Positions 2,051 to 18,241 of a stretch of 18,241 nucleotides of DNA are shown one piece after another; within the stretch, counting starts at the first letter, position 1, and every line of letters begins with the position of its first letter. The notes under the pieces are model-generated. The model was not told the origin of the DNA, did not search any database, and worked only from the letters and a program-made list of their open reading frames with translations. Source of the stretch: an uncultured Nitrososphaeraceae archaeon (GTDB taxonomy: Archaea > Thermoproteota > Nitrososphaeria > Nitrososphaerales > Nitrososphaeraceae); the NCBI GenBank assembly GCA_963837175.1, contig CAWIMJ010000019.1, forward strand, positions 1-18,241. Direction: 5' to 3'. Position numbers and translations under genes: made by a program.

Positions 2051-2111
2051 TACTGCTACTACTAATAATTCAAATAATAAGAAAGCGACAAGCAAATAAC
2101 AAACAAATTGA

Positions 2112-2139
2112 TAGCTTATTATCTTGAGATAATAAGCTA
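2112..2139. repeat. 28-bp palindrome, site A (TAGCTTATTATCT-TG-AGATAATAAGCTA)
   Basis: Perfect 13-bp arms around a 2-bp centre. The reverse complement of 2109-2139 matches 17671-17701 at 30/31 positions. Confidence 0.9.
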
Positions 2140-2179
2140 AGCTATGACCACTTCTTACACACATATGTTTTATTTCATG

Positions 2180-2365
2180 AAAATAATAGGATGATAGTAA
2201 GTAAGAAACAAAGCAAGAGGTAGGTAGATAGGTAGGCAGCCAAGCAGTTAGCAGGTAAGTAAACAAGCAGAAGAGAAGAAGATTCTTCCCAAACCTACGA
2301 GCTATCAACTACTAACCTACTTACCTACTTACTAACCATCCCACCCACTTGCTTGTCTGCCTAAT
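2180..2365. repeat. Degenerate tetranucleotide-period tract, purine-rich then pyrimidine-rich
   Basis: TAGG TAGA TAGG TAGG CAGC CAAG ... TAAG TAAA CAAG, followed by CTAA CCTA CTTA CCTA CTTA ... CCCA CTTG CTTG TCTG. Confidence 0.75.
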
Positions 2366-2404
2366 TAGAAGTTCAACATATATTATTTAACAATTAAGAT
2401 CTAT

Positions 2405-2815
2405 CTACTCCTCGCCTGAAATGCCAGCACCGATATAATGCAAGCGAAATGACCCTTTACCCTCGTCTACTGTATCAACAGCAGGATGGGTATATACATA
2501 GTAAGTAATGCCTTGTATGGCTTCGTCTCTATTAAGCGCAGGCAAATTATAGTAATCGCGAAGGGCCTGCTTTACTTCTCCGGTGTGCATTATCTTTTCA
2601 AAGCGTAACGTCTGATCGACGAATAAATTGGCCTTCTTTTGTAAGTATTCTCGCCTTCTCTGGGTTCCATATTGGTCGTCTGCGCTAAGCTCTGGTAAAT
2701 TACTAATTGGCTTATAGCCAGGGTGAAACGGTGTAATTTTTCTGTTGCCGCCTGTTTCTGCTATCCCGCTGTCGTTTCTGACTGTGCGTCTGCTACTATT
2801 ATTGTATATTGACAT
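2405..2815 (-). CDS. Hypothetical protein (136 aa)
   Basis: Uninterrupted ATG ORF with globular-protein composition, visibly more GC-rich than the cargo region. No family recognised. Confidence 0.65.
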   Translation of the reverse strand: MSIYNNSSRRTVRNDSGIAETGGNRKITPFHPGYKPISNLPELSADDQYGTQRRREYLQKKANLFVDQTLRFEKIMHTGEVKQALRDYYNLPALNRDEAIQGITYYVYTHPAVDTVDEGKGSFRLHYIGAGISGEE

Positions 2816-2955
2816 ATCGCTATTTCGTCCTTCCTACCAAATTTATATTACAAAACGAATTGATTAAAATGTTGCTCTTCTCGTGGACGCCCACGCTATC
2901 TATCGCTAGTTGCCCGAAATGGGCTGTCAAAGGCAGGGGTGGAATATCTAACTAG

Positions 2956-4250
2956 CTGAGGCTGGGTCATAATTATTTCATTTTCATAACGAATAAAGCT
3001 AGTCTATGGGAGTATGATATTTTGGTGAAAGACAATCATCCTCGCCAACAAACTAGCACATAAGAGATTTATACTAACTAACAAAAGTTCGTTTACAGAT
3101 TTTTCTTAATATGTAAGGTTTACTATGCTTAAAAAATCCTTTTACTTGGTTTTAAAAGATATACGAAATTATGTTAGGCAGTATAGATCTATTCTAATTA
3201 GTATTTTGTATTTGATTGGTTTGATATAGTGGTCGAAACATGATAGGAGAAAAAATAAGAAATGTGGCAGACCATATGTCTATTCTCCCACTGTTATTTT
3301 GAGATGTTTTGTAGTACGTATCTGGTTTAGATCAGATTCGAACAGAGCATTACATGAATACCTTGCAATGGATCTATCATATAACAAAAAGGTAATGAAA
3401 GGTGTGGACTATCCAAAATACCATGCAGAAGAACATTTGATAGACGTCTTGCTACGATATCTAATGATATTAAAAATAGAATTACTACAATGGGTAAACT
3501 TTTTGTACGTGATAACATAATTGATCCGTCTATTCTCTCAGCAGACAGGTACTCTTGTAAAGGCTAAAGGTCATGTATGGCACAAATCCTCAATGAAGAA
3601 AAGAATAGTACCACGATCGGGTATTGATGATACTGATGCAAGATGGGGATTTAGTTAGTCATACAAAAGGATGGATATTTGGATACAAATTACATTTGAT
3701 ATCAAGTACTGGTTCCATTATTGTACCTTTGGCAGCAGATTTTACAACTGCCAACATACCAGATAATCAGATATACAATACGTTAATAGCAAGTCTACCT
3801 GTTACAACTTCAAGGAAAATACTCTATGTTTCTGCAGATCCTGGATATGATGATCATGAAATGTATGAACTCAGTACAGAGATGGGATTTCAGTTAGTGT
3901 GTCCAGTAAGGAGATATAAGAACACTTCTGTTGACAGGATAAAACTGGTAGAATTTTATAAATCTGAAGTAGGACAGGCTATCTATTCGTTGAGAGGTAT
4001 ATCAATAGAACCACTGATAGAACATATAAAATCTGTCTTTAGGATAAATCCATTGTAAGTAAGAGGATATAGTAAGGCTTGTGCTATAGTACTATTATCA
4101 TTATTGCTATATCAGATACTTGTTTATTATAACTGTAAAACCAACAAAAAGGATCCAAGAGCAATCAAATACATGCTAGGAACATAATGACTGACTATAT
4201 TGATTATTGATATGATAATATTTGTTCATCAAAATATGACCCAGCCTCAG
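2956..4250 (+). mobile_element. IS element of the IS4/IS5 clan (DDE_Tnp_1-type), degenerate
   Basis: Perfect 16-bp terminal inverted repeats CTGAGGCTGGGTCATA (2956-2971) and TATGACCCAGCCTCAG (4235-4250) around a transposase remnant. The true ends could lie 2 bp further inside. Confidence 0.85.
3125..4187 (+). pseudogene. DDE transposase with frameshifts and internal stops
   Basis: Reconstructed motifs GRPYVYS, RRTFDRRL, SAD(S)TLVKA, DTDARWG, GWIFGYKLHL, ADPGYD, IEPLIEHIK, ending KYMLGT*. Confidence 0.85.
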
Positions 4251-4417
4251 ATAAATAGCATATTTGAGCAGGATCATATCATATTGTCGAAGGAAATCCA
4301 AAATAGAGAAACAAATTATTGGACCAAAATACCCAAAGCGACAATATTCATACAGATCATCATGCCCTTGTATTTCATTTATAAAATGTATTTAAATAAA
4401 TATGAGATATAGAATGG

Positions 4418-4512
4418 TCAGGTACTACTACCAAGAATAGATCTAAGTGAGGTAATAGATGGTGAAAAGAAATATTCACCCCTTGTTGGAATAACCCAAT
4501 CTAATATACTGC
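4418..4512 (-). pseudogene. C-terminal fragment resembling a DyP-type peroxidase
   Basis: ILDWVIPTRGEYFFSPSITSLRSILGSST* resembles the DyP C-terminal motif V.P.GGEYFF.PSI..L. Confidence 0.55.
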
Positions 4513-4514
4513 TT

Positions 4515-4643
4515 GTAAAATACCATTCTTTTCCAAAACCAAAATATTATTACTATCTATAAGGCCATGCTAGTAGGGCGTGACAACTGGGAAGTAACGA
4601 GATCTATTTTCAAGTTAGGATCCTTTAGTGAAGGCATATTACC
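4515..4643 (-). pseudogene. N-terminal fragment of a PQQ-dependent sugar (glucose/sorbosone) dehydrogenase
   Basis: MPSLKDPNLKIDLVTSQLSRPTSMA(F)IDSNNILVLEKNG, with one frameshift, matches the first blade of GSDH-type proteins. Confidence 0.65.
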
Positions 4644-5340
4644 AACATAGACCTAATTTAGATGGATATCGAAAAAAGAAATAATATAATGATCGCAGTA
4701 ATTCGATATAAAAATAAAGCGGACAACAATTTAGTATTCACTCTCTGCCTAAAATGCATTCTTCTTCACCTTCAAAAAAGGTGATCACTGCAAAAATTCC
4801 TTATATAATTTCGTAATTAATATACATAATATCGTTGTCCAAATAATATTCATAGGTATCCCTTATCCTAATCTTTCTGATGTTTTACTATTGGCTTTAG
4901 ATGGTGATGAATCTTTTGTATCAAATGAGAAAATTTGTTATATTATAAAATCCATTTTTAAAAAATAACTTTTTTTTCAATTCTCTGATTCAAATGGGAT
5001 TGTATAATATATTTTATTGACGCTATCTTATCAAGGAAATAAATTCTTATCTTTTATAATTGCATACCAAGGATAAAATGTCATAATTTAATTTACCAAC
5101 TATAACTTTAACAGGTTTAAGTGTCATTTTGATTTTCTTCCTGATCGTAATAATGCATATATATCCTCATTATAGCTAATTGGCTTTGATATTCAATGAG
5201 CTTTTTGGGGGATGAACATAGTATAACTAATATAATTTACCTGTGAATTATTTTATGGCGTAAACTTGAAATTGTAAAAAGAAATCTTGTACTTCTATTT
5301 TGATAACTTTAGAATATATTTTTGTAAAAAAATAAAAGAA

Positions 5341-5850
5341 TTATTGGGATGTCGCGTTAGAAGTTGTTGTTGTCATGTTACCAATTCTTGTTGTTGTCAT
5401 GGTTGTTGTCATGTTACCAATTCCTGCAGCACCCTCCGGAGGCGTTGCGTGGAACATGCCATTTAGAACACAAACCGGCCAACTAGTAGGATCGATTACG
5501 TTGATCGTGACAACTGAGTTAGGATCTGCATCTATGCCCGTTATATAAAAGGCCCATGTCATTCCATCTGGCATCCAACCTTGTTTACCATCTCGTATTA
5601 CTCCTGAGGATGTTATCTGACCGTTTTTGACTACAGCATAATTTAATGTTGCTCCTGGACTTGGCGCATCGCGATTTTGAGGAGCTAGTTGTTGAGGAGG
5701 TAAATGAGTGGGATCTACATCTGCGCAGGTAACAATCATAGTTAAATTTGCTCCCTGTGCAAATGCATTGTTTGGAAGCGCGAAGATTCCTGCTGAGATT
5801 GTCAATACTGTTGCCCACCCCATTGCTAAGATTATTTTTGCGTCGAACAT
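5341..5850 (-). CDS. Secreted hypothetical protein with Thr-rich repeated tail
   Basis: Signal peptide ending AFA-Q. The C-terminal IGNMTTT motif is duplicated, with NxT sequons. Confidence 0.8.
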   Translation of the reverse strand: MFDAKIILAMGWATVLTISAGIFALPNNAFAQGANLTMIVTCADVDPTHLPPQQLAPQNRDAPSPGATLNYAVVKNGQITSSGVIRDGKQGWMPDGMTWAFYITGIDADPNSVVTINVIDPTSWPVCVLNGMFHATPPEGAAGIGNMTTTMTTTRIGNMTTTTSNATSQ

Positions 5851-6828
5851 ATTATAACGCTAGATCGAAATTAACTATAATAAGATTTTCCTTAATTTTC
5901 AAAATAACAGTCTGATAAAAGAGAAAGGCAATTATTAGCAAAAAAGAAACGATCGAAAATGTTCTGTAAAGTATCTCTACAACTGATCAAGGAAAATAAA
6001 TATACAGTATGTAACAAAAAGTATTCTGAATATTGAGATAGCACATATACAATCATTAATCATTCTGTTCAAATTTTATCGCATAGAAGACTAGTATAGA
6101 GCTCCACCACTAAGCATCCATTTGACCTATCCACATTATAAATTGATTTAATTGAAAAACACGATACAATCAATTTATTTTTATCTCTATTGTATTAGTG
6201 GAAAATTAATACTCTTTGGTTGTACGATGTAGTGAAATGTAACAACAGAACGTAGCTCTATCTAAAAACATATTAGTTATCATAACAAAATAATCTAGTC
6301 ATCAGGGAAAAAACACAGCTGCAATATCTAATTTGCGGATATGGGATCAGTGAACTAGCTCAACTTAGTTAAGTTAACAGGCCATTTGGTTATGGTTAAC
6401 ATATGAGCCAAATTTACATGTCTCTGCTTGTTATTTCATATATTAAGAGAAACGCCTATTTTTGCTTTTTATCAATTTTTCAAACAGATTAGGAAAAAAT
6501 ATGGAATAAGGAAGCTTTTATTAAATACATATTACATAATAGATTGATTTATTTAGAAGAACATACATAGTAGACATGATACACAAATGAATTTTTTGCA
6601 AGAACTTTAGGCAGATTATTCTCTATTTATAAGTTGGTAATTAAATGCTTGCATTTGGATCTTTCGCACAATCAATTTCTCATTGTGTTCGTTTTATTTC
6701 TGCGAGATAAACCTCTAAAGGTTTTTCTCTTCTGTCAATCTCTTTTACTGCTCTCCTGACTGTGTCATTGTATTATATATCTTGTTGAGAAAATTCCATC
6801 AATGTTCTTACCTTCTCTCGTCTTCCAC

Positions 6829-7284
6829 CTTGCAACATCTGAAATAAATCCTGATCAGCCAAAGAAAAGAGGATTTCCTTTTAACGATCTTACTCAATTG
6901 ATGCAAGATAATAATTCAACAAGAATAGTAGCAATTTTAGATTGTTGTTATAGTGGATCTGCGAAAATTAGTAAGGGTCATGAAGATGATGCAGCAAAAT
7001 TAGCTACGGCTGCTATTAACAGACAATCAAATGAACTTAATACCGGAGAAGGAAAGTGTATTTTGGCTGCTAGCCAAGCTCTCCAAGAAGCATATGTATT
7101 GGAAGAGCAGAATCATAGTGTATTTACTTATTACTTGCTTCAGGGTCTAAAAGGTGAAGAAGAAGCAGCGGCAGATAATAATGGTAATATTACAGTGGAT
7201 TCCCTGGGCAGGTATATTCATAATAAAATTATGTTACTGCCACAATTAATTAATTATCAATCAATCATTGCAATCAAATCCTGA
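6829..7284 (+). pseudogene. Caspase-like (peptidase C14) domain fragment
   Basis: ILDCCYSG catalytic-Cys motif, ILAAS..QEAY, HSVFTYYLLQGLKG and DNNGNITVDSL are present. The N-terminal SGHG catalytic-His region is absent. Confidence 0.8.
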
Positions 7285-7454
7285 ATACATTCAACTACTA
7301 CTAGATAGAATAAATGATAAGCCCTTTGGATCTGGTATATAGTAGAAGAACATAAGCAATAAGATATTATTAAAACGAAAGGAGATTGCTGCTTTAATTA
7401 TATCATTGGTATGCCAAACAAAAATGGATTAGACAAGGCATTCTTATGTTCTTA

Positions 7455-7943
7455 TCATAATGCTCTATTGTGTGCCTGATCATCTCGCTCATGTATTGGT
7501 CCTATAGATCCCCAGCTACCAGAATATTCACCTGTAATCTCCAAAACATCATCACTATACGAAATCTCCTTGAGTATCTCTAATGTCAACTTTTGATTTG
7601 TGACATAATGAGTGCCCTTATCATATACAGCAGGTCTCATTCCAGTTTTTTGAAATATATAGTTTTTAGCTTTTTCTGGATTTGTTCCATTTTTTGTAAA
7701 TACCTCTAGCGTATACATTGGTCCTTCTGCATTATTATTACTGGACTGATTATACTCCCTCTCACGAGAAAGTAAATCCTCAATAAATCCAGGTACCACT
7801 TTAGGTAAAACCTGTGTATATATTGCCTGCAATTTCTTACGCTGTATTCTTAATGCATTTAGTTCAACTGATTCTTTCCTGATTCCAGAGCCTGTTAATT
7901 CAAATATTTCTTTTCCAAACATAGATTCTGATAGTTTGCTCAT
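7455..7943 (-). CDS. Hypothetical protein (162 aa)
   Basis: Clean ORF with globular composition. The real start may lie upstream (~8005) across a frameshift in the G/A run at ~7950-7970. Confidence 0.75.
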   Translation of the reverse strand: MSKLSESMFGKEIFELTGSGIRKESVELNALRIQRKKLQAIYTQVLPKVVPGFIEDLLSREREYNQSSNNNAEGPMYTLEVFTKNGTNPEKAKNYIFQKTGMRPAVYDKGTHYVTNQKLTLEILKEISYSDDVLEITGEYSGSWGSIGPIHERDDQAHNRAL

Positions 7944-8283
7944 ATATTCTTCTTCCCCCTCCTCCTTTTGTTTCTTTTATCTTTTCTAACATTTCGGACA
8001 TCATATCAGTTAATGTAGCATCAGCAATTGATTTAGATATGGTGCAAGTCCAAGTTAGGTTTTAAGCCAATTTTAGTATCAGGTGTCTGGTTTGTATACT
8101 CTGACTACAGAAAGCAGACAGACAGAGTGTTAAAATCAATATATAAAAAAACTTAAGGATATTATCGATGGTCGGTGTTATATTATCTAACTTTATTCTT
8201 TAATCTATTAAATAATAATATTATTCCCTACTATTTTTTTTCTGAATTAATTTATATTGGTTAGTTCACAATAACAATAATGA

Positions 8284-9246
8284 TCAACTCTGTGCGGCAA
8301 GGCGTCTTTTTCTAGTTACTAATTCTTCTGACTCACTCAACCTTCTGTTAATTTCTCTTTTCAACCATTCTTGATAGTATACTAATTTAGTTGTAATAAA
8401 TACCTCAGTTCTCTCTACTCCATCATAAGATTCTAGCCTTTTCAATATTAAATCAACCGTGGGTATGTTTGCACAAAAGAATACTGCAAAAATAAGGTCA
8501 CTTTGATTTGGATTTTGAATAAAGACCAAGTATTCCTGCATTTCGTGGTATATTCTTTCAATGATATTTTGGTAAAGCGATCTTTGTACATGGATTATTA
8601 CTGCAAATTCGATGTATCCAACTAATTGCATAGAAGACATGTCTCTGAGAATAGAAAATTGTAGAACATGGTTTTCTCTCATTTTTTGCAATCGCCTTGT
8701 TACGGTCTTTGTTGATATTGTTGATTCTTTAGCAATATTTTCGACTTGCATTCTAGCATTTGATAACAGATATTTTATGATTTTAAAATCAGAGTTATGT
8801 ATTTTCATAGATATTTGTTTGTAAGTTACTAACATACTGTCCTCCACAATAACTGCTGGTTTTAGCAAATTAACCATTAGTCCAATCTTATCCTCTCCTC
8901 CAGCTTTAATTGATAGCACAAATATAGAAGCTCGTCCTAATTGCTTAGCAAACACAGATACATCTCCTAAGAGATTGAGGCGATTAACAATTTCCTCTTC
9001 TTTGATTGTTTTTTCAGTATGTCGTACTGTCAAAATACATTCTTTTTCATATCTGAAAATTACAGGGTTTACTCTTACCACAAAATTTTGTATTATTCCA
9101 TTAGAAGTCATTTTATTAATTCTTTCTTTGACTGCATTTGGAGTTATGCCAACAGTAGAAGCTATATTTCTATAAGGGATTCTACAATCTACAGAAAGAG
9201 AATTTATAATTGTTAAATCTATTTTATCTATCACTGTCTTGGGCAT
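8284..9246 (-). CDS. Lrp/AsnC-family transcriptional regulator with tandem duplicated HTH and effector domains
   Basis: Two AsnC-type wHTH motifs: DKIDLTIINSLSVDCRIPYRNIASTVGITPNAVKERINKM and DFKIIKYLLSNARMQVENIAKESTISTKTVTRRLQKM. Confidence 0.9.
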   Translation of the reverse strand: MPKTVIDKIDLTIINSLSVDCRIPYRNIASTVGITPNAVKERINKMTSNGIIQNFVVRVNPVIFRYEKECILTVRHTEKTIKEEEIVNRLNLLGDVSVFAKQLGRASIFVLSIKAGGEDKIGLMVNLLKPAVIVEDSMLVTYKQISMKIHNSDFKIIKYLLSNARMQVENIAKESTISTKTVTRRLQKMRENHVLQFSILRDMSSMQLVGYIEFAVIIHVQRSLYQNIIERIYHEMQEYLVFIQNPNQSDLIFAVFFCANIPTVDLILKRLESYDGVERTEVFITTKLVYYQEWLKREINRRLSESEELVTRKRRLAAQS

Positions 9247-9467
9247 TCAATTCCAAGTAACATAACGGACCCCGATAAGAGTTTTGGTCTCATTTATGCA
9301 GCAAGCCTTGCACTATAGATAAATTCTATGTATAACTTGGTAATTCAATGACAAAACTCTATATGTATACGGATAAGATGGGAGCTTACCAGTTACCTGG
9401 AATAGAAGAAATACTTCCATCACAGATAAAACAATATGAGATAATAAAAAAGGGGTGGCTGTAAAAA

Positions 9468-9904
9468 ATGGCAAAAAATGGTACAAGAGAACAACTATCT
9501 TCCTATCATTACTATCAATACTACTTTATTGCTGCTGAGCTGCTACTGCAATAGCTGGAATAGTACATCTGTATATGCCACTCGCGCATCCGAGAATGTT
9601 TGAAAATATACCAATGGTGACATTCTTTCTTGGTTCCGGAATTGCACAGATATTTTGGATATTGCCTATGATAAAGAGATGGGGAAGAATATGGTATTAT
9701 ATAGGAATTGCAGGAAATATAGCTTTTATAATACTATATGTTATAACACGATTCCCTGGCAATCTTGTTAATGGAAAAGGTGGAGATGTTGATGCAGTTG
9801 ATATGATATGTGAATTGGCGCAAGTAGCATATATAGCAATAACTGCAGTGATACTAGCTAAAGAAAGAAGTATAAAAGTAGTTGATAAGGAACAGCTAAG
9901 GTAA
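9468..9904 (+). CDS. Small multi-pass membrane protein, N-terminus probably frameshifted
   Basis: ORF 9575-9904 has three hydrophobic helices. The in-frame upstream ATAIAGIVHLY suggests a fourth helix and a start near ATG 9468. It is divergent from the Lrp/AsnC gene. Confidence 0.7.
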
Positions 9905-9907
9905 ACA

Positions 9908-10062
9908 GGCTCTGTTCACTTAATTTTTCCTTTAATAAGCATTCTATATGCATATAAACAAACTGATTCATCATCCAATTGCTAACATGATGTTCTAGTT
10001 TACAGTTATCTCTTTTTCTACATGGAAAATAATAATCATCAAAACATTCTGTTCTATCTATA
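9908..10062 (-). mobile_element. IS6 3' fragment with terminal inverted repeat (inverted copy of 1896-2050)
   Basis: GGCTCTGTTCACTTAA at 9908, and the translation is the same as for 1896-2050. Confidence 0.85.
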
Positions 10063-10349
10063 AAGTTGTATAGACATACCTGATGCATTTGCTGCACCCT
10101 GTAATTTCTCATCAAAACTTTCTAATTCGGTCATAAGATCATCATCATCATCTTTATTATCACTATATATACTGCCGGTCAGGAAGTCTTGTTACCCATC
10201 ATCATCATTTCCATGGTGCTTTGAGGAATCATTACTACTATAGCACTTTAATCAACTGCTTTTTCTCTGCATGTTTGATTAGCTGCTTTTGCTGCTGCTG
10301 CATCTAAACCTGGTATAGTAGTAGTTGGTGGTGGTGGTAGTAGTAGCGG

Positions 10350-10976
10350 TTATGATACTGTAGAAACCACAGAGACTGTGTTTGAACGAACATTGGTCAC
10401 ATATGCCCAGCCATTAGTTGGGTTAATTGCAACTCCAAATGGACCATCACCAACAGCTATAGTAGCAACTACTGTGTTAGTTCTAGGATATATTACAGAG
10501 ACTGTGTTTGAATTAGAATTGGCCACATATACCAAGCCATTAGTTGGGTTAATAGCAACTCCATATGGACTTACACCAACAGGTATAGTAGCAACTACTG
10601 TGTTAGTTCTAGGATATATTACAGAGACTGTGTTTGAATTAGAATTGGCCACATATACCAAGCCATTAGTTGGGTTAATAGCAACTCCATATGGACTTAC
10701 ACCAACAGGTATAGTAGCAACTACTGTGTTAGTTGCAGAATTTATTACAACGATTAGGTTTTCCTCAGCATTGGTCACATATACCAAGCCATTAGTTGGA
10801 TTAACAGCAACTCCATATGAATCACCACCAACAGGTAGAGTAGCAATTACAGAATATTTCTGTGCATTAGCTGTACCTATTTCTGAAGAAAATACTATAG
10901 AAATCAGGAGTGTCATAGTCAGAAGTGAAAACAATATAAGAGAAATGGTCGTTTTCATGGGGGTTTCATTACTCAT
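10350..10976 (-). CDS. Secreted YVTN/YncE beta-propeller repeat protein (4 repeats)
   Basis: Signal peptide plus four 42-aa YVTN repeats. Repeats 2 and 3 are identical 126-bp units. Confidence 0.9.
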   Translation of the reverse strand: MSNETPMKTTISLILFSLLTMTLLISIVFSSEIGTANAQKYSVIATLPVGGDSYGVAVNPTNGLVYVTNAEENLIVVINSATNTVVATIPVGVSPYGVAINPTNGLVYVANSNSNTVSVIYPRTNTVVATIPVGVSPYGVAINPTNGLVYVANSNSNTVSVIYPRTNTVVATIAVGDGPFGVAINPTNGWAYVTNVRSNTVSVVSTVS

Positions 10977-11241
10977 TATAAATCATCTTGTTACAGCAGC
11001 AGCAATTGCTAAATTCTAGCATTTAAGACAAGGATATGATATATATATTATTTATAGTTTTATGATATGTTTTCTGGGAATCCATTTTATCGATGATTAT
11101 TAGTAGTAAGGAATATTACACAACAATTTATGAAGTTCCCTGCTATCTCCACCGTTTTAATAGCCTGTCTTTACTATATCAAGAGCAAAACTAGTATACG
11201 TAAACTATATTATGATATCTATACAGCAGCGTGCTTAAAAA

Positions 11242-12064
11242 TTGAGATATAATATAATAAAACCTCTAAGCTCAGGTGCATTTGGAACAGTATATGGAGC
11301 AATAGGAGAAGATAACAACAAATACGCATTAAAAGAGTTGAAGAACTTTAATACAACTAACAAGGAACGTTTTGAAAGAGAAATCAAAATACTATCACAA
11401 CTAAATCATCCCAATATTGTTAAAATAATTCAATGGAATATAGGAGGTGATCCTCCAAATTTCATTCCTTACTATGTAATGGAATATCTCAGCGGCGGTC
11501 CTCTTAGACAACATATGGATGAAAAGTTTAGCCAAAGGTATGTTTTTGAGAGAAAGTGGACAATTAACCGAATAATCTTACCTTTATGTAATGCTCTAGC
11601 ACAAGCCCATAGTGAGAATATTTACCATAGGGATCTAAAACCAGATAATATTATGTATACAACCCGTGACAGATCTGAAATAAAAATTACTGATTGGGGT
11701 CTTGGCAAAGATGTCAACAGAGAATCAATAGCTCTAACTGGCAGCAGTAGGAGAACTTGGAGGAACACCAGGCTACTGTGCGCCAGAGCAATGGTTTACC
11801 CTAGATAACATTGATGGACGTGTCGATATCTTTTCCTTAGGAATAATATTTTATGAAATGATGACAGGAAAGAGGCCTGTAGTTTTTGATGAAAATGACA
11901 TTATGAAGAAGAGGCGAATTGATTCTCCGTCAAAATATCATCCAACGATCTCTGGAAAACTAGACCGCTGCATTTTGAAGATGATTGATCTTCAACCTGA
12001 AAATAGATATCAGTCTGTGTGGGATCTAATTTCTGAAATTGAAATTTTACCAGATTATCATTGA
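11242..12064 (+). pseudogene. Hanks-type Ser/Thr protein kinase with one frameshift (~11740)
   Basis: GAFGTVY, ALKEL, HPNIV, YHRDLKPDNI and DWGLGK, then in the shifted frame GGTPGYCAPEQW, DIFSLGIIFYEMMTGKRP and PENRYQS. Confidence 0.9.
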
Positions 12065-12119
12065 TGATGACGATAGCATTGGCTACATTAGAAACTTTAG
12101 ATTTAATTATTTGATCGAG

Positions 12120-12417
12120 AATCTTATTAGAAATAGGATCATACATTTCCACAGTGGTGGTACTTTGACCAGTTTTGTCAAATCCGGCAATAATGTAGAC
12201 CTTTCCATTCAAAGCAGCATCACCAATTTCCGATCTTGAAGTAGGTAGAGGTGCTCCAGTAGTCCAAGGGATAGGGTATTATTGTTGTCAGGCCGATTTT
12301 CTTCTTGTACATATGCATCGATATCTGTGTAAGTTATTGTAGTTAATAGAGAAAGGTAAAAAAACCCATTACACCAAAAATGATGAAGAAAGTTTTAAGA
12401 ATTTCCTTTGACTTCAT
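12120..12417 (-). pseudogene. Truncated secreted Kelch-repeat protein
   Basis: Signal-like N-terminus from ATG 12417, then (frameshifted) WTTGAPLPTSRSEIGDAALNGKVYIIAGFDKTGQSTTTVEMYDPISNK. Similarity stops after one repeat. Confidence 0.75.
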
Positions 12418-12532
12418 ATAAAAGACCTCATTGCTATTAGTATACCATTTCTTTGCACTTTAGAAACATCCTCATGGTATGTATTGGTAAGAGTTTTGTT
12501 CTTGCTACCTACTCTATCTCCTTATTACAAAA

Positions 12533-13444
12533 CTAGACATATTTTCCTAGAAAAGCCAAAGTCTTCTTCCAGGCATCCGCTGTCTCTTGTGGTGCATAGT
12601 TATCATTAGAAGGATTTGCAAATGCGTGGCCTACTCCTGGATATATGTAAATTTCATTTATAACCCCTGTTTCATTAAGACCCCGTTCAAATGCTTTTAC
12701 TGAATCTACAGATATTGATTGATCCTGGTCTCCAAATACACCAAGTACTGGCCATTTAATTTTGGAAATTTCATTTGTATCATTTATCACTTGACCATAA
12801 TATATTATAGTAGCAGCTAAAGGATGTTCTTCACTATTCAATGCTAATTGTAAAGATTGTCCTCCTCCAAAGCACCACCCTATAGAGGCTATCCTAGAAG
12901 CATTAACGTTTTGAAGAGAGCCAAGGTAATCAACTGCAGACTTCATATTTTCAATAGCAATACCAGGATTATTTCTTACAGATGAAGATAACTCTCTAGC
13001 CCGATTGGGATCGGCAGTTACCTGTCCTTGGAATAGATCAACAGCTAATACAACATAGCCTTGTTTAGCCAATATATCTGCTGTATTTTTAATATTATCA
13101 TTTAGTCCTCTGTTTTCATGAATCATGATGACTGCAGGAAGTTTCTCTGGTGCTACTGTTATATTATCAGGTAAATTCGATACAGGATAAACAAGGTATC
13201 CTGAGGCATTCTCATAGTAAGCAACTGTTTCATTTTGTATAGTGTGTTTGGCAGTACTGCTGCTATTAATATAATTGTTAGTAACAGTTGATATTGTTGT
13301 TACTGCAGCCGAGAAAAATGCTCTCTTATGTTCTTCTTGTGCTCCTGCTTTTTCAATAAACGGTATATAAAATGATAATATATTTAGGATCATTGCAGAT
13401 AGTATTAGTCCAGACACTATGTGGATTCTGTTTCCTTTAACCAT
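12533..13444 (-). CDS. Dienelactone hydrolase family protein with N-terminal signal/anchor
   Basis: PAVIMIHE, nucleophile motif GWCFGG, acid GDQD and His motif GHAFAN. Confidence 0.92.
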   Translation of the reverse strand: MVKGNRIHIVSGLILSAMILNILSFYIPFIEKAGAQEEHKRAFFSAAVTTISTVTNNYINSSSTAKHTIQNETVAYYENASGYLVYPVSNLPDNITVAPEKLPAVIMIHENRGLNDNIKNTADILAKQGYVVLAVDLFQGQVTADPNRARELSSSVRNNPGIAIENMKSAVDYLGSLQNVNASRIASIGWCFGGGQSLQLALNSEEHPLAATIIYYGQVINDTNEISKIKWPVLGVFGDQDQSISVDSVKAFERGLNETGVINEIYIYPGVGHAFANPSNDNYAPQETADAWKKTLAFLGKYV

Positions 13445-13675
13445 TGTAAACTACCTTACTAATCTGTATTATTAAATTGTACTTCTACTATGTGTTATAT
13501 AGCTATACAGTACTAGGAATATTACGTATTTCCAGCCAACAAAATAGATACTGGATATTATAATCCAGAAAGCGTAAACAGACTAATTCTTTATGGTTCA
13601 CATAATGGTGGTAAAGAACTAATACCCCATCTCCAGCACTTATTAATAATCTTAAAAGTGTATAATAACACAAGA

Positions 13676-14128
13676 ATGAAAGGAGAAGAAGAAAATGAGA
13701 CTGTAATAGAAGAAGTAAAGAAAATTAACAACCAGTTCTATCATGCATTTGAGAATCTATCCATTGAGATGATGGAAAGACTATGGAAGCATGTTGATAA
13801 TGCTGTTTGTATACATCCAGGTTGGGATTTATTTATTGGCTGGTTGGCAATACGCGAAAGTTGGATAACTATATTTCGCAATACAGAGATGATAAGATTT
13901 ACGATTACAAACACTAAGGTTAGAGTCTTCGGTGGCAACAACATTGCAGTAGTTGTATGCTTAGAAAATATAGAAACTTCACTCAATAGACAAGAACAAC
14001 CAATTGTTAAGATTGGCGTTGTTGCTACTAACATATTTGAGTACGATAAAAACCAATGGTTACTTATCCATCATCATGGTTCGTCTGTATCAAATTACAT
14101 TCCACCTAATATTTCGCCTCAATACTGA
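13676..14128 (+). CDS. SnoaL/NTF2-like domain protein
   Basis: NNQFYHAFE..MERLW..CIHPGW..GWLAIRESW..IF and ATNIFE..WLLIHHHGS. ATG 13676 is preferred over GTG 13658. Confidence 0.88.
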   Translation: MKGEEENETVIEEVKKINNQFYHAFENLSIEMMERLWKHVDNAVCIHPGWDLFIGWLAIRESWITIFRNTEMIRFTITNTKVRVFGGNNIAVVVCLENIETSLNRQEQPIVKIGVVATNIFEYDKNQWLLIHHHGSSVSNYIPPNISPQY

Positions 14129-14284
14129 GAAAAGATTATAGGATTGTAAGCATGTATTGAGTACGCGATTACATCCACAACAATTAATAATCAGTGGGCT
14201 ATCTATGTATTTCAGCAGCTTTTATAGAGCAAGAAAATAAAAGATATGTCATCAAAAAATAATAACATCAAAAACCCTCATACC

Positions 14285-15455
14285 ACTGCTGTTGCTAAGT
14301 TAAGTCTCTGATTTTCTATCAACTATTTTTTAACCGAATGACAGTTATTCTTGATAACTAAGATTTTAGCTCATTGATTTGCACTCATTATTCTGAAACC
14401 ACATCCGCTCAAGGTGTTTAATGTTCAGAAGAAGGAATTATTCGATTTCATCAAGAATACCAGAAACAAGGAAGAGTACAAACGTGCATTAGCTGTAAAG
14501 CAGAAGATTGAAGGTCTATCATATAGAACTATAGCCAAGAATATCGGAGTTAATTACAGGAATGTTTATCGAATAGTTGATGCCTACAGACAAGAAAGAA
14601 TTAATGGTACAACGAGTAAGAGAAACAATGCAGGTAGAATACCAAAGATATCATCTGAAAAGAATAAGCAGATGATCAAAGACATAGTAATAAACAAGTC
14701 TCCAAGTACATTTGGATATCTGAAGAACACTTGGAGTATCAGACTATTAGCCAAATATCTATCTAAAGAGTTAATGATGAATGTCAGTCCAATGCAAACC
14801 TGGAGGATAATTAATGAGCTTGGAATCAAATACAAGAGACCTAAACTTGCTCTTGAACACGAAGATGATTATGAAGAAAAGAAGAAGGTTGTAGACAATT
14901 ACAAGAAGGTATCTTCTGCACTTTTAAAAAATGGTTCTTTTAGGATTTGAAGATGAGACATGGCTATACTTACGACCATACATAACTAATACATATATGA
15001 TGAAAGGAGATCAACAAAATATATTCCATAATGGAGCGAACAAAAAGGTCAATGCATTCATAACATTGCTTTATCCATCGAACAAGGTTAAGTTCAAGAT
15101 AAGCAAATCCAGAACAAGCAATGATTTCATAGATCATCTTAAGAACGTAAAACGTTACGTGAAAAATAATAGAGTGAAGCGATTTATACTTGTAATAGAC
15201 AATGCATCATTTCATGTAAGTAGAAAAACTAAAGATTTTTTGGATAAACAAGCTCAGTGGCTTACTGTAATATTCTTACCAATACGATCACCAAATCTTA
15301 ATCCAGTTGAAACAAGAGTGAACAGGAACCTGAAGAAGGATATTTGTGCTAACCACAACTATCAAACAGAAGGGACTTTAATAGCTGCTGTAACAAAATA
15401 TCTTAAATCTATAGGTAGTTGGCAGAGATTATGATACTTGACTTACTACAGCAGT
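14285..15455 (+). mobile_element. IS630-family insertion sequence
   Basis: Imperfect terminal inverted repeats ACTGCTGTTGCTAAGTTAAGT and ACTTGACTTACTACAGCAGT enclose a two-ORF transposase. Confidence 0.82.
14414..15434 (+). CDS. IS630 transposase (HTH OrfA 14414-14950, DDE OrfB 14931-15434)
   Basis: HTH, GRIPK, WSIRLLA and LGIKYKRP in OrfA. FEDET, IDNASFH and SPNLNPVE in OrfB. The ORFs overlap at TTTTAAAAAA. Confidence 0.88.
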
Positions 15456-15513
15456 TAAAACTAAAATTAAAAAAGCCACTGTACAGAAGCAACAAGATCA
15501 GCAACTGCATCAG

Positions 15514-17153
15514 ATGCAACAGCAATTATCACTTCCTAAATTGCAGCGTAAAATTGAAGAAGTAACAGCTGATCTTCCAAATCAAGAAACTGTCAACAAA
15601 CTAACAGAGCTGCCCGCTGCCAATTCGCTGACCGTCTGCAGCTATTTAATTGCCATGAAGAAAGAGGTTAATTCATCAAAGAAGTACAGACAAACGAACA
15701 TCCAGACTCTCTGTTATTTATCCAGACATCATAAACATCAACTACGCTATGAAGACATGACTAGAGACGATGTAATCATGTACCTTAATAGTTTGATGAA
15801 ACCTGATAGTATAGAATCCTCAACATAAGTATGTAGGAACATATAACGTACGCCTGATCTATCTACAGAGATTCTTCAAATGGCTGTACTCCCCAAATAT
15901 CCCACAGAACCAAAGACCCATGCCAGCAGCAGTAATGCAAAACATTCCAAGACTAAGGCGTAAAGTGATCACTACAATCAAGCCTTCCGATCTGTGGACA
16001 GAGGAAGACGATGCTCTATTCTTGAAGTACTGCGATAGCAAAAGAGATAAGGCCTACCACATGATCGCTAGAGACTCATCATGTAGGCCCAGCGAGATTC
16101 TAGGACTAAGGATAAAAGATCTGGCCGTCATGCAGACTGTAGACAAGAAGCTGTATTACCAGATAACAGTAAATGGAAAGACTGGAACTAGAAACATCCC
16201 TCTGTTTACTGCTGTTCCCTATGTTAAGAACTGGCTAGACGATCACCCGATGGGTAAGAATCCAAACGCGTACCTGATTTCCACTTTGGACATTAGGCAC
16301 CATCTGACTAAGGGCAATCGCATGCTGTCCTCTTCAATGAACGCTATCTATAACAAGCACTACAAGACTGAAATCTTTAAAGACAGATTATTAAAAGACC
16401 CGATAGTACCGCCAGAAGATAAGATAAAGATTCGTGAGTTATTGAAAAAGCCATGGAATCCCTACATTAGAAGGCATAGCGCATTAACCCAGAAGGCTCA
16501 GAAACTGACAGCTCCCGTCTTGAAAGCAGCATGCAGGTTGGTCCCCTGGAAGCAAGATGGAAACTAAATATCTGCACTTTCTAGGCGCGGAGTCTAATGA
16601 CGCCATACTCTCTGAGATCTACGGCTTGGAGACTGCTGCCACTCTCAAGTCTAAGAAGCTGTCGCAGGCCATCGCTCCCAAGATCTGTACTAACTGCAAT
16701 GAGTCTAATATTCCTGATGCAAGATTCTGTAGCAAGTGCAGGATGGTATTAACGTATGATGCTTATCAAGAAACAATAGATGAACAGAAAAAGAAAGAAT
16801 CACGAGTAGAAGAATTAGAATTACAAGTCAAGAACCAGGCAGCAGCGCAGGCCGTTCATCAAAAATTATTAGAGACTATAGTAGGCATGCTTCAGAATGT
16901 CAATAGGCCAGAAATGCATGGTCAGAATAATGATCTGTTAAACATTCCAGAATTCAAGACGCTGACACATGAGCAAAAATTAGAAGGCCTGAAAGAAATT
17001 AGGGAAGAAACCCAAACCGCTATCAACGAAGTCCTAATTCCTGAAACTGCTAATCTCGTACATGGCTTATCAGAAAACAACAGAAAGAAGGTTAAAGACT
17101 CAGCAAAGAAAATGTTAGATGACAAAAGATGTAAGCAGGCCTTTGTTGAGTGA
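15514..17153 (+). CDS. Tyrosine recombinase/integrase with C-terminal zinc ribbon and coiled coil (three ORFs, two 1-bp frameshifts)
   Basis: SAM-like N-domain (LQRFFKWLY), catalytic R (CRPSE), K (GKTG), YIRRHS, QHAGW and Y (KYLHF), then CTNC..CSKC. Frameshifts at ~15815 and ~16525. Confidence 0.88.
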
Positions 17154-17227
17154 ATGAGTAAACAAGTAAGTTAGCAATCGTTAATAGTTCACTTTTTCAT
17201 ATTATATTATAGTGATCTAATAACAAC

Positions 17228-17734
17228 ATGCCCCAAGGCGATACAGTATATGATCAATTTTATCAGGCGGAACAGCAGAGAAAAGATAGGATAAAAACCT
17301 TCGGTACGTTGCGTTTAGCTGAGGATTATAGGAATGCTGCGGTTTGGTATACCGATAATATTTTGATACACAAAATCAATCAAGAAGACAATACTGAAAA
17401 TATTAGACAATGGCTTTCTGCAAACCTAAATATCAACACTAGAAATGAATCGGATCAAATAATCCGCTATATCGTTTTCAATCCCGATACAGATGTCATC
17501 CAACAGTACATTTCAGAAGCAAAGCAAATAGAATATAAAATTAAGCACAAGCAAACTGTGACAAGTGCTGCTAGGCTAGGGTTCAAAATGGCACACGCAA
17601 TTGAGGTTGAAAGACAGTTAGCAGAAGACAGAGAGCAGAAAGCAAAGAATACAAAAACAAAGATCCAGCATAGGTTATTATCTCAAGATAATAAGCTATC
17701 ACCGTCACCATACAAATTTTTAATTTTATTTTAA
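17228..17734 (+). CDS. Hypothetical protein downstream of the integrase
   Basis: 168-aa ATG ORF with helical composition. Its 3' end reads through palindrome site B. Confidence 0.7.
   Translation: MPQGDTVYDQFYQAEQQRKDRIKTFGTLRLAEDYRNAAVWYTDNILIHKINQEDNTENIRQWLSANLNINTRNESDQIIRYIVFNPDTDVIQQYISEAKQIEYKIKHKQTVTSAARLGFKMAHAIEVERQLAEDREQKAKNTKTKIQHRLLSQDNKLSPSPYKFLILF
17671..17698. repeat. 28-bp palindrome, site B (TAGGTTATTATCT-CA-AGATAATAAGCTA)
   Basis: Inverted copy of site A with one mismatch. Confidence 0.9.
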
Positions 17735-17900
17735 TAAAGTAAAATAAAGTAAGTAGACAAATAGAAAAGACTTCTCCATCCCTGAAAGCACTTTTTCTAT
17801 TCTTATTATTCGCTTTTCCCTTCCTTCCCCTTCTTCATTCTTAGTTAGCTTCTTGTTTGCTTACTTGTCTGTTTGCTCGCCCGCTTATTTGCTTCCTTCA
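17735..17900. repeat. Purine-rich then pyrimidine-rich tract with 4-nt periodicity
   Basis: AAAGTAAGTAGACAAATAGAAAAGA followed by TTAGTTAGCTTCTTGTTTGCTTACTTGTCTGTTTGCTCGCCCGCTTATTTGCTT. Confidence 0.7.
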
Positions 17901-17972
17901 CATGTTCTAAGCGTTTGATAAGGTAGATGTCCGTATGAAACTATATTATTTAAAAATTAAGTTGGATTATTC

Positions 17973-18241
17973 GGCTCTGTTTACTTAAGCCATCATCTTC
18001 GTATTATGATAATCAACGAAAAAATTGAACCAATTTCTGATATGTTGTAGTTTACATTTATTTTTCTTTTCTACTACAAGGAAAGTAGTCATGATCAAAG
18101 CTTTCGGTTCTATCCTTTTGATGTCCTCTGTATGGTTCTTTCAATCATGCTTTTCTCATAGGAGGAATGCAGATGATGATGATTATTCAGGAATTTACAA
18201 GCCTGAGGATACCATGTACCTCCATCGATTGAAACTGGATG
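17973..18241 (-). mobile_element. IS6-family copy, cut by the window end (direct repeat of 4-~295)
   Basis: 17973-18164 is identical to 4-195. Beyond that it is homologous but diverged. Confidence 0.92.

Follow-up and report, generated by a model that had tools for sequence, protein, structure and literature searches.

Two palindromic sites and an integrase gene

The DNA analysed here (the window) is the whole of one contig, C19, 18,241 bp long, from the 3.81-Mb genome (3,810,681 bases in 58 contigs, 34% G+C) of an uncultured Nitrososphaeraceae archaeon. Near its two ends lie two near-identical 28-bp palindromes, which we call sites A and B, and a gene for a tyrosine recombinase (integrase) lies a short distance upstream of site B. 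The pair of palindromes is real, far beyond chance and specific to this locus. The nearest relatives of the window's genes are all from Nitrososphaeraceae archaea, and its long open reading frames (ORFs) were fitted by translation table 11; genetic code 4 was also tried, did not lengthen the real genes, and table 11 was kept. The features with which the argument starts are the following.

2109-2143, no strand: site A unit, 35 bp, holding a perfect 28-bp palindrome (2112-2139) with 11-nt arms, spacer CTTGAG and centre TG
17667-17701, no strand: site B unit, the reverse complement of the A unit at 33 of 35 positions, with its palindrome at 17671-17698 and spacer CTCAAG
15514-17153, plus strand: pseudogene of a tyrosine recombinase (integrase), spread over three frames (15514-15828, 15836-16567 and 16524-17153), with a C-terminal CxxC...CxxC zinc ribbon

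Site A reads TAGCTTATTAT-CTTGAG-ATAATAAGCTA, a perfect palindrome of 11-6-11 architecture. Because the spacer is itself symmetric save for its two central bases, the site is effectively a 13-2-13 palindrome centred on TG. Site B reads TAGGTTATTAT-CTCAAG-ATAATAAGCTA; a single base of its arms is mismatched (C to G, at 17674), and its centre is CA. Both palindromes thus lie where a first-pass annotation of this DNA had placed them, with the sequence that it described, and both have the 11-nt inverted arms and 6-nt spacer that characterise dif/Xer sites. The same annotation had counted a 30/31 match between the two as reverse complements; the near-identity holds, and its extent proved to be longer, with a repeat finder returning a 35-nt inverted repeat (2109-2143 against 17667-17701) that is 94% complementary. 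When 480 nt around each site were aligned, the likeness ended abruptly at 35 nt on both sides, an abruptness that, by analogy, resembles the identity segments of attachment (att) sites and recombinase sites, and would favour a reading of this kind. The flanks within the 35 bp are asymmetric, with TGA on the outer side of both sites and A/TGCT on the inner side, so that the inverted arrangement is real in the contig as assembled; the inverted match of 33/35 compares with 26/35 in direct orientation, the latter being a hand count. The two spacers are CTTGAG on opposite strands, which makes the overlaps identical.

Site B begins 518 bp past the last integrase codon, in agreement with the 0.5 kb noted earlier, and sits in the last ~20 codons of ORF168, of which ~15 codons lie past the spacer; a further 270 bp separate the site from a copy of an insertion sequence (IS) family. 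ORF136 ends with its stop 265 bp short of site A, on whose other side lies an IS fragment. Thus, neither site is upstream of a gene. Both are also outside all IS copies, as had been claimed, since the IS-end fragment beside A stops at 2051, an IS4-like and an IS630-like element occupy 2948-4258 and 14296-15445, and the IS-family copy beyond B starts at 17968.

In single-strand folds each site forms a 12-bp hairpin, and the centre of A, TG, is the reverse complement of that of B, CA. These properties would fit hairpin sites, either for telomere resolution (the first-pass annotation had suggested hairpin-type sites with flip/flop centres) or as RNA or DNA hairpins in terminators or origins. However, a replicated hairpin telomere needs a palindrome that is perfect through its centre, and neither TG nor CA is self-complementary. 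Moreover, the sites are internal to the contig, a scan of the window for Rfam matches was empty, archaeal termination needs no hairpins, and the modelled recombinase (below) resembles Xer, Cre and lambda-type enzymes. We therefore give hairpin sites very little credence.

Uniqueness of the palindrome

At up to three mismatches, the 28-mer is expected 0.00 times by chance (200 shuffles of the window). A search of the whole genome at up to five mismatches returned A, B and one unrelated match with five mismatches, and a search for both arms with at most one mismatch each, at any spacing from 0 to 20, returned A and B only. Perfect 11-6-11 palindromes number 11 genome-wide, and none besides A is related to A. 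Half-sites are no more frequent in the window than chance would give beyond the sites themselves, there being six, four of which are the site arms, against 1.79 expected.

The 28-mer was found at up to three mismatches in none of 60 related genomes. Pattern scans of larger collections gave eight single matches in public genome contigs, all in unrelated bacteria and none otherwise similar to the window, three in metagenome contigs with no other similarity to it, and none in viral contigs; these matches look like unrelated, isolated hairpins. BLAST searches found no match to the site in plasmid records and one chance match (E 0.09, filed twice) in phage records. With two copies in the genome and none in the 60 relatives, A and B are neither a dispersed regulatory motif nor a miniature inverted-repeat transposable element (MITE), and the picture that the first-pass annotation had set against its own proposal, a palindrome widespread upstream of ordinary genes, is not the one that emerged.

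The same counts bear on an explanation in which A and B would be operators, bound without any recombination by a dimeric protein, for example the Lrp/AsnC-like protein with a double helix-turn-helix (HTH) encoded at 8284-9246, or by an unknown repressor. Perfect dyad symmetry, which the palindrome has, is typical of dimeric regulators; the double HTH_AsnC protein is encoded within the A-B interval itself, and related integrase elements carry other intergenic palindromes (in locus L080 and, similarly, L029, described below). Set against this, a motif present twice in 3.8 Mb, with 13-bp half-sites that are long for an operator and with neither copy upstream of a gene, makes operators an unlikely explanation.

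The integrase family and its modelled fold

Judged by profile and conserved residues, the gene at 15514-17153 belongs to the tyrosine recombinase superfamily. It matches Pfam PF00589 at 29 bits (cut-off 27.1) and the phrog_1 integrase with an E value of 6e-12. When aligned with 23 intact relatives (436-508 residues), the three pieces together span the full protein, and they keep near-invariant R (RDSSCRPSE), K (NGKTG), RRH, W (AGW) and Y (KYLHF) columns, which we read as the probable catalytic set (R, K, R-H, W and Y) of the family. The alignment also bears out the earlier description of a recombinase with a zinc ribbon, the CxxC...CxxC motif being conserved at the C-terminus of the family and followed by a long helix. 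The frame changes fall near 15815-15830 and 16515-16530, outside long homopolymers, and we therefore read the gene as a true pseudogene.

Searches of PDB sequences found no match between the family and any solved structure, even by profile. The AlphaFold model of an intact relative (predicted local distance difference test, pLDDT, 82) was closest to XerH-difH (E 7.5e-8), followed by Cre-loxP, Tn1549 Int, the lambda Int core and XerA. By this model, the enzyme is two-domain and Xer/Cre-like, of the kind that acts on short sites with inverted arms. We know of no recombination site for the zinc-ribbon integrase family, for which the literature was not searched, and the word 'zinc' does not occur in a review of archaeal tyrosine recombinases that was word-searched for it.

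Relatives at 36-60% identity occur in 91 of 105 candidate stretches of public genome contigs, often several per genome, and the gene is multi-copy across Nitrososphaeraceae genomes. The window's own genome has paralogues on contigs C45 (49% identity), C6 (45%), C54 and C2.

Orientation of the sites and an exact inverted repeat

How A and B are oriented to each other turns on another repeat, one arm of which lies next to site A.

1663-2051, no strand: left arm of an exact 389-bp inverted repeat, comprising the 3' part of an NHL/YVTN gene and the IS-end fragment, and ending 60 bp from A
9907-10295, no strand: right arm of the same repeat; exchange with the left arm would flip 2052-9906, including site A

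The stretch 711-2051, an NHL/YVTN beta-propeller pseudogene together with the IS-end fragment, is an inverted duplicate of 9907-11078. Over their 389 bp the two arms show 100% identity, in the 559 bp that adjoin them identity is 85.4%, and the next best copies of the 389-bp repeat in the genome are 97.2% and 94.9% identical. The jump from 85% to 100% points either to a recent exchange between the arms or to a repeat that the assembler traversed twice. The NHL/YVTN copies hold 126-bp internal tandem repeats, and further copies lie on contigs C9, C34, C16 and C8.

Flipping 2052-9906 leaves every junction shorter than 389 bp unchanged. Site A would come to lie at 9819-9846, direct to B at 33/35 positions and 7.85 kb from it, with identical overlaps, and the integrase would then lie at the right end, in the canonical layout of an integrated element. 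Since site A lies 60 bp inside the stretch that the exact repeat bounds, the relative orientation of A and B is fragile. The inverted orientation claimed in the first-pass annotation is thus correct for the contig as assembled, and hinges on how the 389-bp repeat is resolved; the original state may have been inverted or direct, and both may coexist.

This weakens a further proposal of the first-pass annotation, that the sites define a ~15.5-kb invertible segment. Here, an active, programmed system would flip the 15.5 kb between 2140 and 17670, and because the local integrase is broken, its enzyme would need to act in trans, as a paralogue or the host Xer. Inverted sites of the lox/FRT type direct inversion, and, as assembled, the 35-bp units are inverted with identical overlaps and matching asymmetric flanks, while integrases on C45 and C6 could be looked to as paralogous enzymes. 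There is also room for such a system, in that archaeal chromosomal invertons are barely explored: a bioRxiv report (10.1101/2023.03.11.532203) gives 12 putative cases in 42 genomes, none of them thaumarchaeal. On the other hand, the locus itself encodes no functional recombinase, and the paralogues are only 45-49% identical to the window's. If the assembly contains the host dif, more than 5 of the 28 positions set it apart from A and B. The inversion would visibly exchange neither an ORF nor a promoter, the ~15 codons of ORF168 past the B spacer being all that would change, and no family-wide tie between integrase and palindrome pairs was seen. With the orientation resting on the exact repeat beside A as well, an active 15.5-kb switch is unsupported, and we consider it unlikely.

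Genes and mobile elements around the sites

The remaining features of the locus, which is pseudogene-rich, are listed below.

2405-2815, minus strand: ORF136, an ORFan adjoining site A
2948-4258, plus strand: IS4/IS5-like element with 27-nt terminal inverted repeats and a ~117-bp MITE inside it (3070-3186)
14296-15445, plus strand: IS630-like element with HTH and DDE_3 domains in two ORFs, just upstream of the integrase
17228-17734, plus strand: ORF168, assigned by its N-terminal ~114 residues to a tiny family that is uncharacterised; its C-terminal part, with site B, is not conserved
17968-18241, plus strand: copy of a multi-copy IS-like repeat, at the contig's right end; another copy occupies 1-710

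From site A inwards, an imperfect palindrome is followed by ORF136, the IS4/IS5-like element, an ORF for a secreted protein, a caspase fragment and an unknown ORF. Next come the Lrp/AsnC-like double-HTH gene and a gene for a small membrane protein, followed by the other NHL/YVTN copy and a fragment of a protein kinase, and then a dienelactone hydrolase, a SnoaL-like gene, the IS630-like element, the integrase and ORF168 with site B in its 3' end. The caspase-domain ORF (6802-7284) and the Ser/Thr kinase ORF (11242-11808) are both truncated, and the IS630-type transposase (14414-15434) is divided between two ORFs, one with the HTH and the other with DDE_3. The imperfect palindrome, at 2232-2360 between A and ORF136, is long, with a purine-rich arm followed by its pyrimidine-rich complement, and 2095-2405, folded as a single strand, gives a z-score of -3.0 relative to shuffles. 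About 45 copies of the MITE-like element at 3070-3186 are present in the genome, at 95-100% identity.

The DNA adjoining both sites is ORFan or near-ORFan. Protein searches with a word index returned only ORF168 and ORF136 themselves, and public genome contigs gave nothing; an atlas search with ORF136 gave scores below 0.8. For the N-terminal part of ORF168 (17228-17570), an exhaustive search among 1.84 billion proteins found three weak relatives, and among 238 genomes searched one other, of the same genus, contained a match (G002:C62:5672-5980). The 10-kb contig that holds this match has neither an integrase nor a palindrome like A or B. The relative there adjoins an HTH fragment of an IS-like family that is also found in the window, at 444-747. 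The AlphaFold model of ORF168 has a pLDDT of 52.5.

In such an IS-rich region, A and B might also be thought of as terminal inverted repeats, bounding a transposon-like element of 15.6 kb that a transposase would move; they are 35-bp inverted repeats with TGA pointing outward at both ends. Yet no target-site duplication is visible by 2109 or 17701, the genome holds no further copy of the ends, and the terminal repeats of the two internal IS elements are unrelated to A and B. The ends of DDE transposons are, moreover, not usually complete palindromes, as A and B are. Transposon ends are accordingly improbable.

The contig ends, 1-710 and 17968-18241, are copies of one repeat family that occurs on many contigs. 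A circular contig was considered and rejected: the ends are alike over ~218 nt and then diverge with indels, and many other contigs match equally well, so that they are two copies of the family rather than an overlap. A scan of the window for transfer RNA (tRNA) genes was empty.

Related strains and public reads

Public reads related to the locus were found in 20 soil runs from eight studies, which contain 35-51% of sampled words of 11100-17960, and four of these runs were compared as Logan contigs. The four runs have no coverage at 2000-2533, 4670-5737 and 15884-18000; they cover neither site and are therefore silent for or against inversion, and no run looks like the source of the assembly. 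No alternative A/B junction is present in the genome assembly, and the loose ends of the soil-run contigs gave only IS-type matches when compared with the genome by BLAST. Synteny with same-genus genomes and with loci that bear a SnoaL-like gene extends to single genes only, which means that an empty site cannot be reconstructed from them. The hydrolase and membrane-protein genes are adjacent in tandem in two same-genus genomes, unlike in the window.

None of the breakpoints in close strains falls at A or B. In X1 and X2, two runs of two studies, contigs connect position 14153, immediately beyond the SnoaL-like gene, with 7244, the strand being the same and some 120 unknown nt intervening; in close strains, 7244-14153 might exist as a circle or in tandem, or be a transposed block. 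In contigs of close strains, 9154 (X1) or 9174 (X4) is also joined to 9908, on the opposite strand. This inversion breakpoint coincides exactly with the end of the IS-end fragment, suggesting an IS-driven rearrangement. The MITE is skipped exactly in contigs of X1, X2 and X9 (joint 3068|3184, with 3069-3183 absent).

Sites A and B as possible relics of an integrase element

The reading that we favour, at a probability of about 45%, is that A and B are relics, dif-like core sites for recombination left by an integrase element that is strain-specific and has decayed. They would be core-type sites either of the tyrosine recombinase beside them or of whatever element carried the integrase in. Each 11-nt arm would bind one recombinase monomer, and the 6-nt overlap would be the place of strand cutting and exchange, as in dif, loxP and att cores; binding of the integrase to A and B, and every recombination event considered here, we infer. 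A and B would then mark the two ends of strain-specific, ORFan-rich DNA, with ORF136 beside A and the integrase and ORF168 beside B. Subsequent decay would account for the two integrase frameshifts, the insertion of the IS630 and IS4 elements and the MITE, and the truncation of the caspase and kinase genes. Given this decay of the DNA between them, the sites are most likely relics of integration or recombination and not a working switch.

This reading is supported by the 11-6-11 architecture, the uniqueness of the pair, the closeness of site B to the integrase and the XerH/Cre-like model, which also lend partial support to the earlier suggestion that the palindromes are cognate core sites of the recombinase. 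The sharp end of the likeness at 35 bp, the ORFan DNA beside both sites, the retained residues of the probable catalytic set and the occurrence of such integrases in thaumarchaeal integrated elements (below) speak for it as well. As in attL/attR pairs, the integrase adjoins one of the two sites (17153 against 17671). In the orientation of the contig, the sites would direct inversion, and a flip of 2052-9906 would give the direct-repeat layout of an integrated element. The att-site alternative that the first-pass annotation mentioned is at least as likely as inversion sites, and the pair may have begun as either of the two.

Several observations weigh against core sites of this integrase. First, its reading frame is not intact, and with two frameshifts the window copy would not make a cognate enzyme. 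Second, the association of integrase and palindrome does not extend to relatives. We compared 80 related loci (915,403 bases), in which 26 11-6-11 palindromes are scattered and none resembles A or B. Around 53 intact integrase relatives the density of such palindromes was 0.31 per kb on the downstream side and 0.29 per kb on the upstream side, as against 0.24 per kb elsewhere, which is no enrichment, and no palindromes like A or B were found near the integrase paralogues in the window's own genome. The expectation that the 28-mer would be co-located with integrase homologues in related genomes therefore failed, with no occurrence in the 60 genomes and none near the 53 intact relatives. Third, the sites depart from what is known of both att and dif. 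As assembled, they are not direct repeats, becoming so only after the flip of 2052-9906, and they occur twice in the genome and in none of the 60 relatives, where a dif would be single-copy and conserved. Finally, the A-B interval holds ordinary-looking cellular genes (the Lrp/AsnC-like regulator, the dienelactone hydrolase and the SnoaL-like gene) and no plasmid or virus hallmark genes, and the flanks of A and B had no match in five same-genus genomes, so that no empty site was found.

Across six long related loci there were no conserved flanking repeats. Three of the related elements, all with an integrase of the same family as the window's, carry palindromes of other kinds. In L080, an inverted pair of ATTATTCG...CGAATAAT units (13638-13684 and 14060-14106) lies in intergenic DNA, 375 bp apart; it has a counterpart in L029 (10970-10997) and looks origin- or operator-like. 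In L061, a cluster of TTACCGGTAA / CTTATTAC palindromes (2735-2810) lies about 0.65 kb downstream of the integrase.

If A and B are core sites of this kind, they would be a candidate 28-bp, dif-like substrate for a large uncharacterised integrase family of soil Nitrososphaeraceae, for which binding and recombination assays would be easy to design. A much bolder version would have them as a working dif-like module of an ammonia-oxidising archaeon, on which a recombinase acting in trans (a zinc-ribbon paralogue or the host XerA) both inverts and excises the 15.5 kb of cellular genes as a flip-and-move cassette; both reactions could be open to it because the sites fall short of full symmetry in the central TG/CA alone. 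This we think very unlikely; if true, no site-specific system of inversion or cassettes would have been described in Nitrososphaeria before, and it would parallel, among archaea, the plasmid pdif modules. The locus is decayed and belongs to one genome, which limits its wider importance. It does carry a caution for assembly-based scans for invertons, in that an exact inverted repeat beside a site makes 'inverted' and 'direct' interchangeable in a short-read assembly.

Comparison with known systems

Integrated elements of the same archaeal group provide one comparison. Thaumarchaeal integrated elements carry integrases that belong to the tyrosine recombinase superfamily, and their att sites are described as direct repeats, mostly <26 bp with a median of 17 bp (Krupovic et al. 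2019, PMC6563490). The window resembles them in its end-proximal integrase, its ORFan-rich DNA and its short, sharply bounded terminal repeats. It differs in that A and B are 35 bp long and inverted unless 2052-9906 is flipped, which adds to the points that count against core sites of an integrated element. It differs also in having no tRNA gene, no recognisable target gene and no plasmid or virus hallmark genes.

A second comparison is with recombination systems that use inverted sites. The Cre/loxP and FLP/FRT systems and the inversion switches share with A and B the inverted arms around an asymmetric spacer, and Cre-loxP is among the top structural matches of the recombinase model. Inversion switches driven by tyrosine recombinases include Fim, the R64 shufflon and Int1 of the haloarchaeal virus phiCh1. 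In contrast to these, the window has a broken recombinase, a very large interval (15.5 kb), no switched gene and a single orientation in the assembly. The pdif modules of Acinetobacter plasmids are also close in form, with 28-bp, 11-6-11 Xer-type sites in opposite orientation that bracket a gene module. The host XerC/XerD acts on their sites, which many plasmids share, whereas the window has one pair without a further copy, together with an element-borne recombinase.

The third comparison is with dif itself. In bacteria and archaea, dif consists of 11-nt inverted repeats and a 6-nt spacer, with cleavage at the spacer edges (PMC8371274). It is a single-copy site conserved among relatives, in contrast to A and B, and the window's recombinase family differs from Xer in its additional C-terminal zinc ribbon and long helix, its multiple copies and its lack of a sequence match to any solved structure. 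The likeness lies in the sites and in the fold: like dif of the archaeal XerA/dif and Helicobacter XerH/difH systems, A and B are 28 bp long with an 11-6-11 architecture, and the recombinase model is closest to XerH-difH, with XerA also matched.

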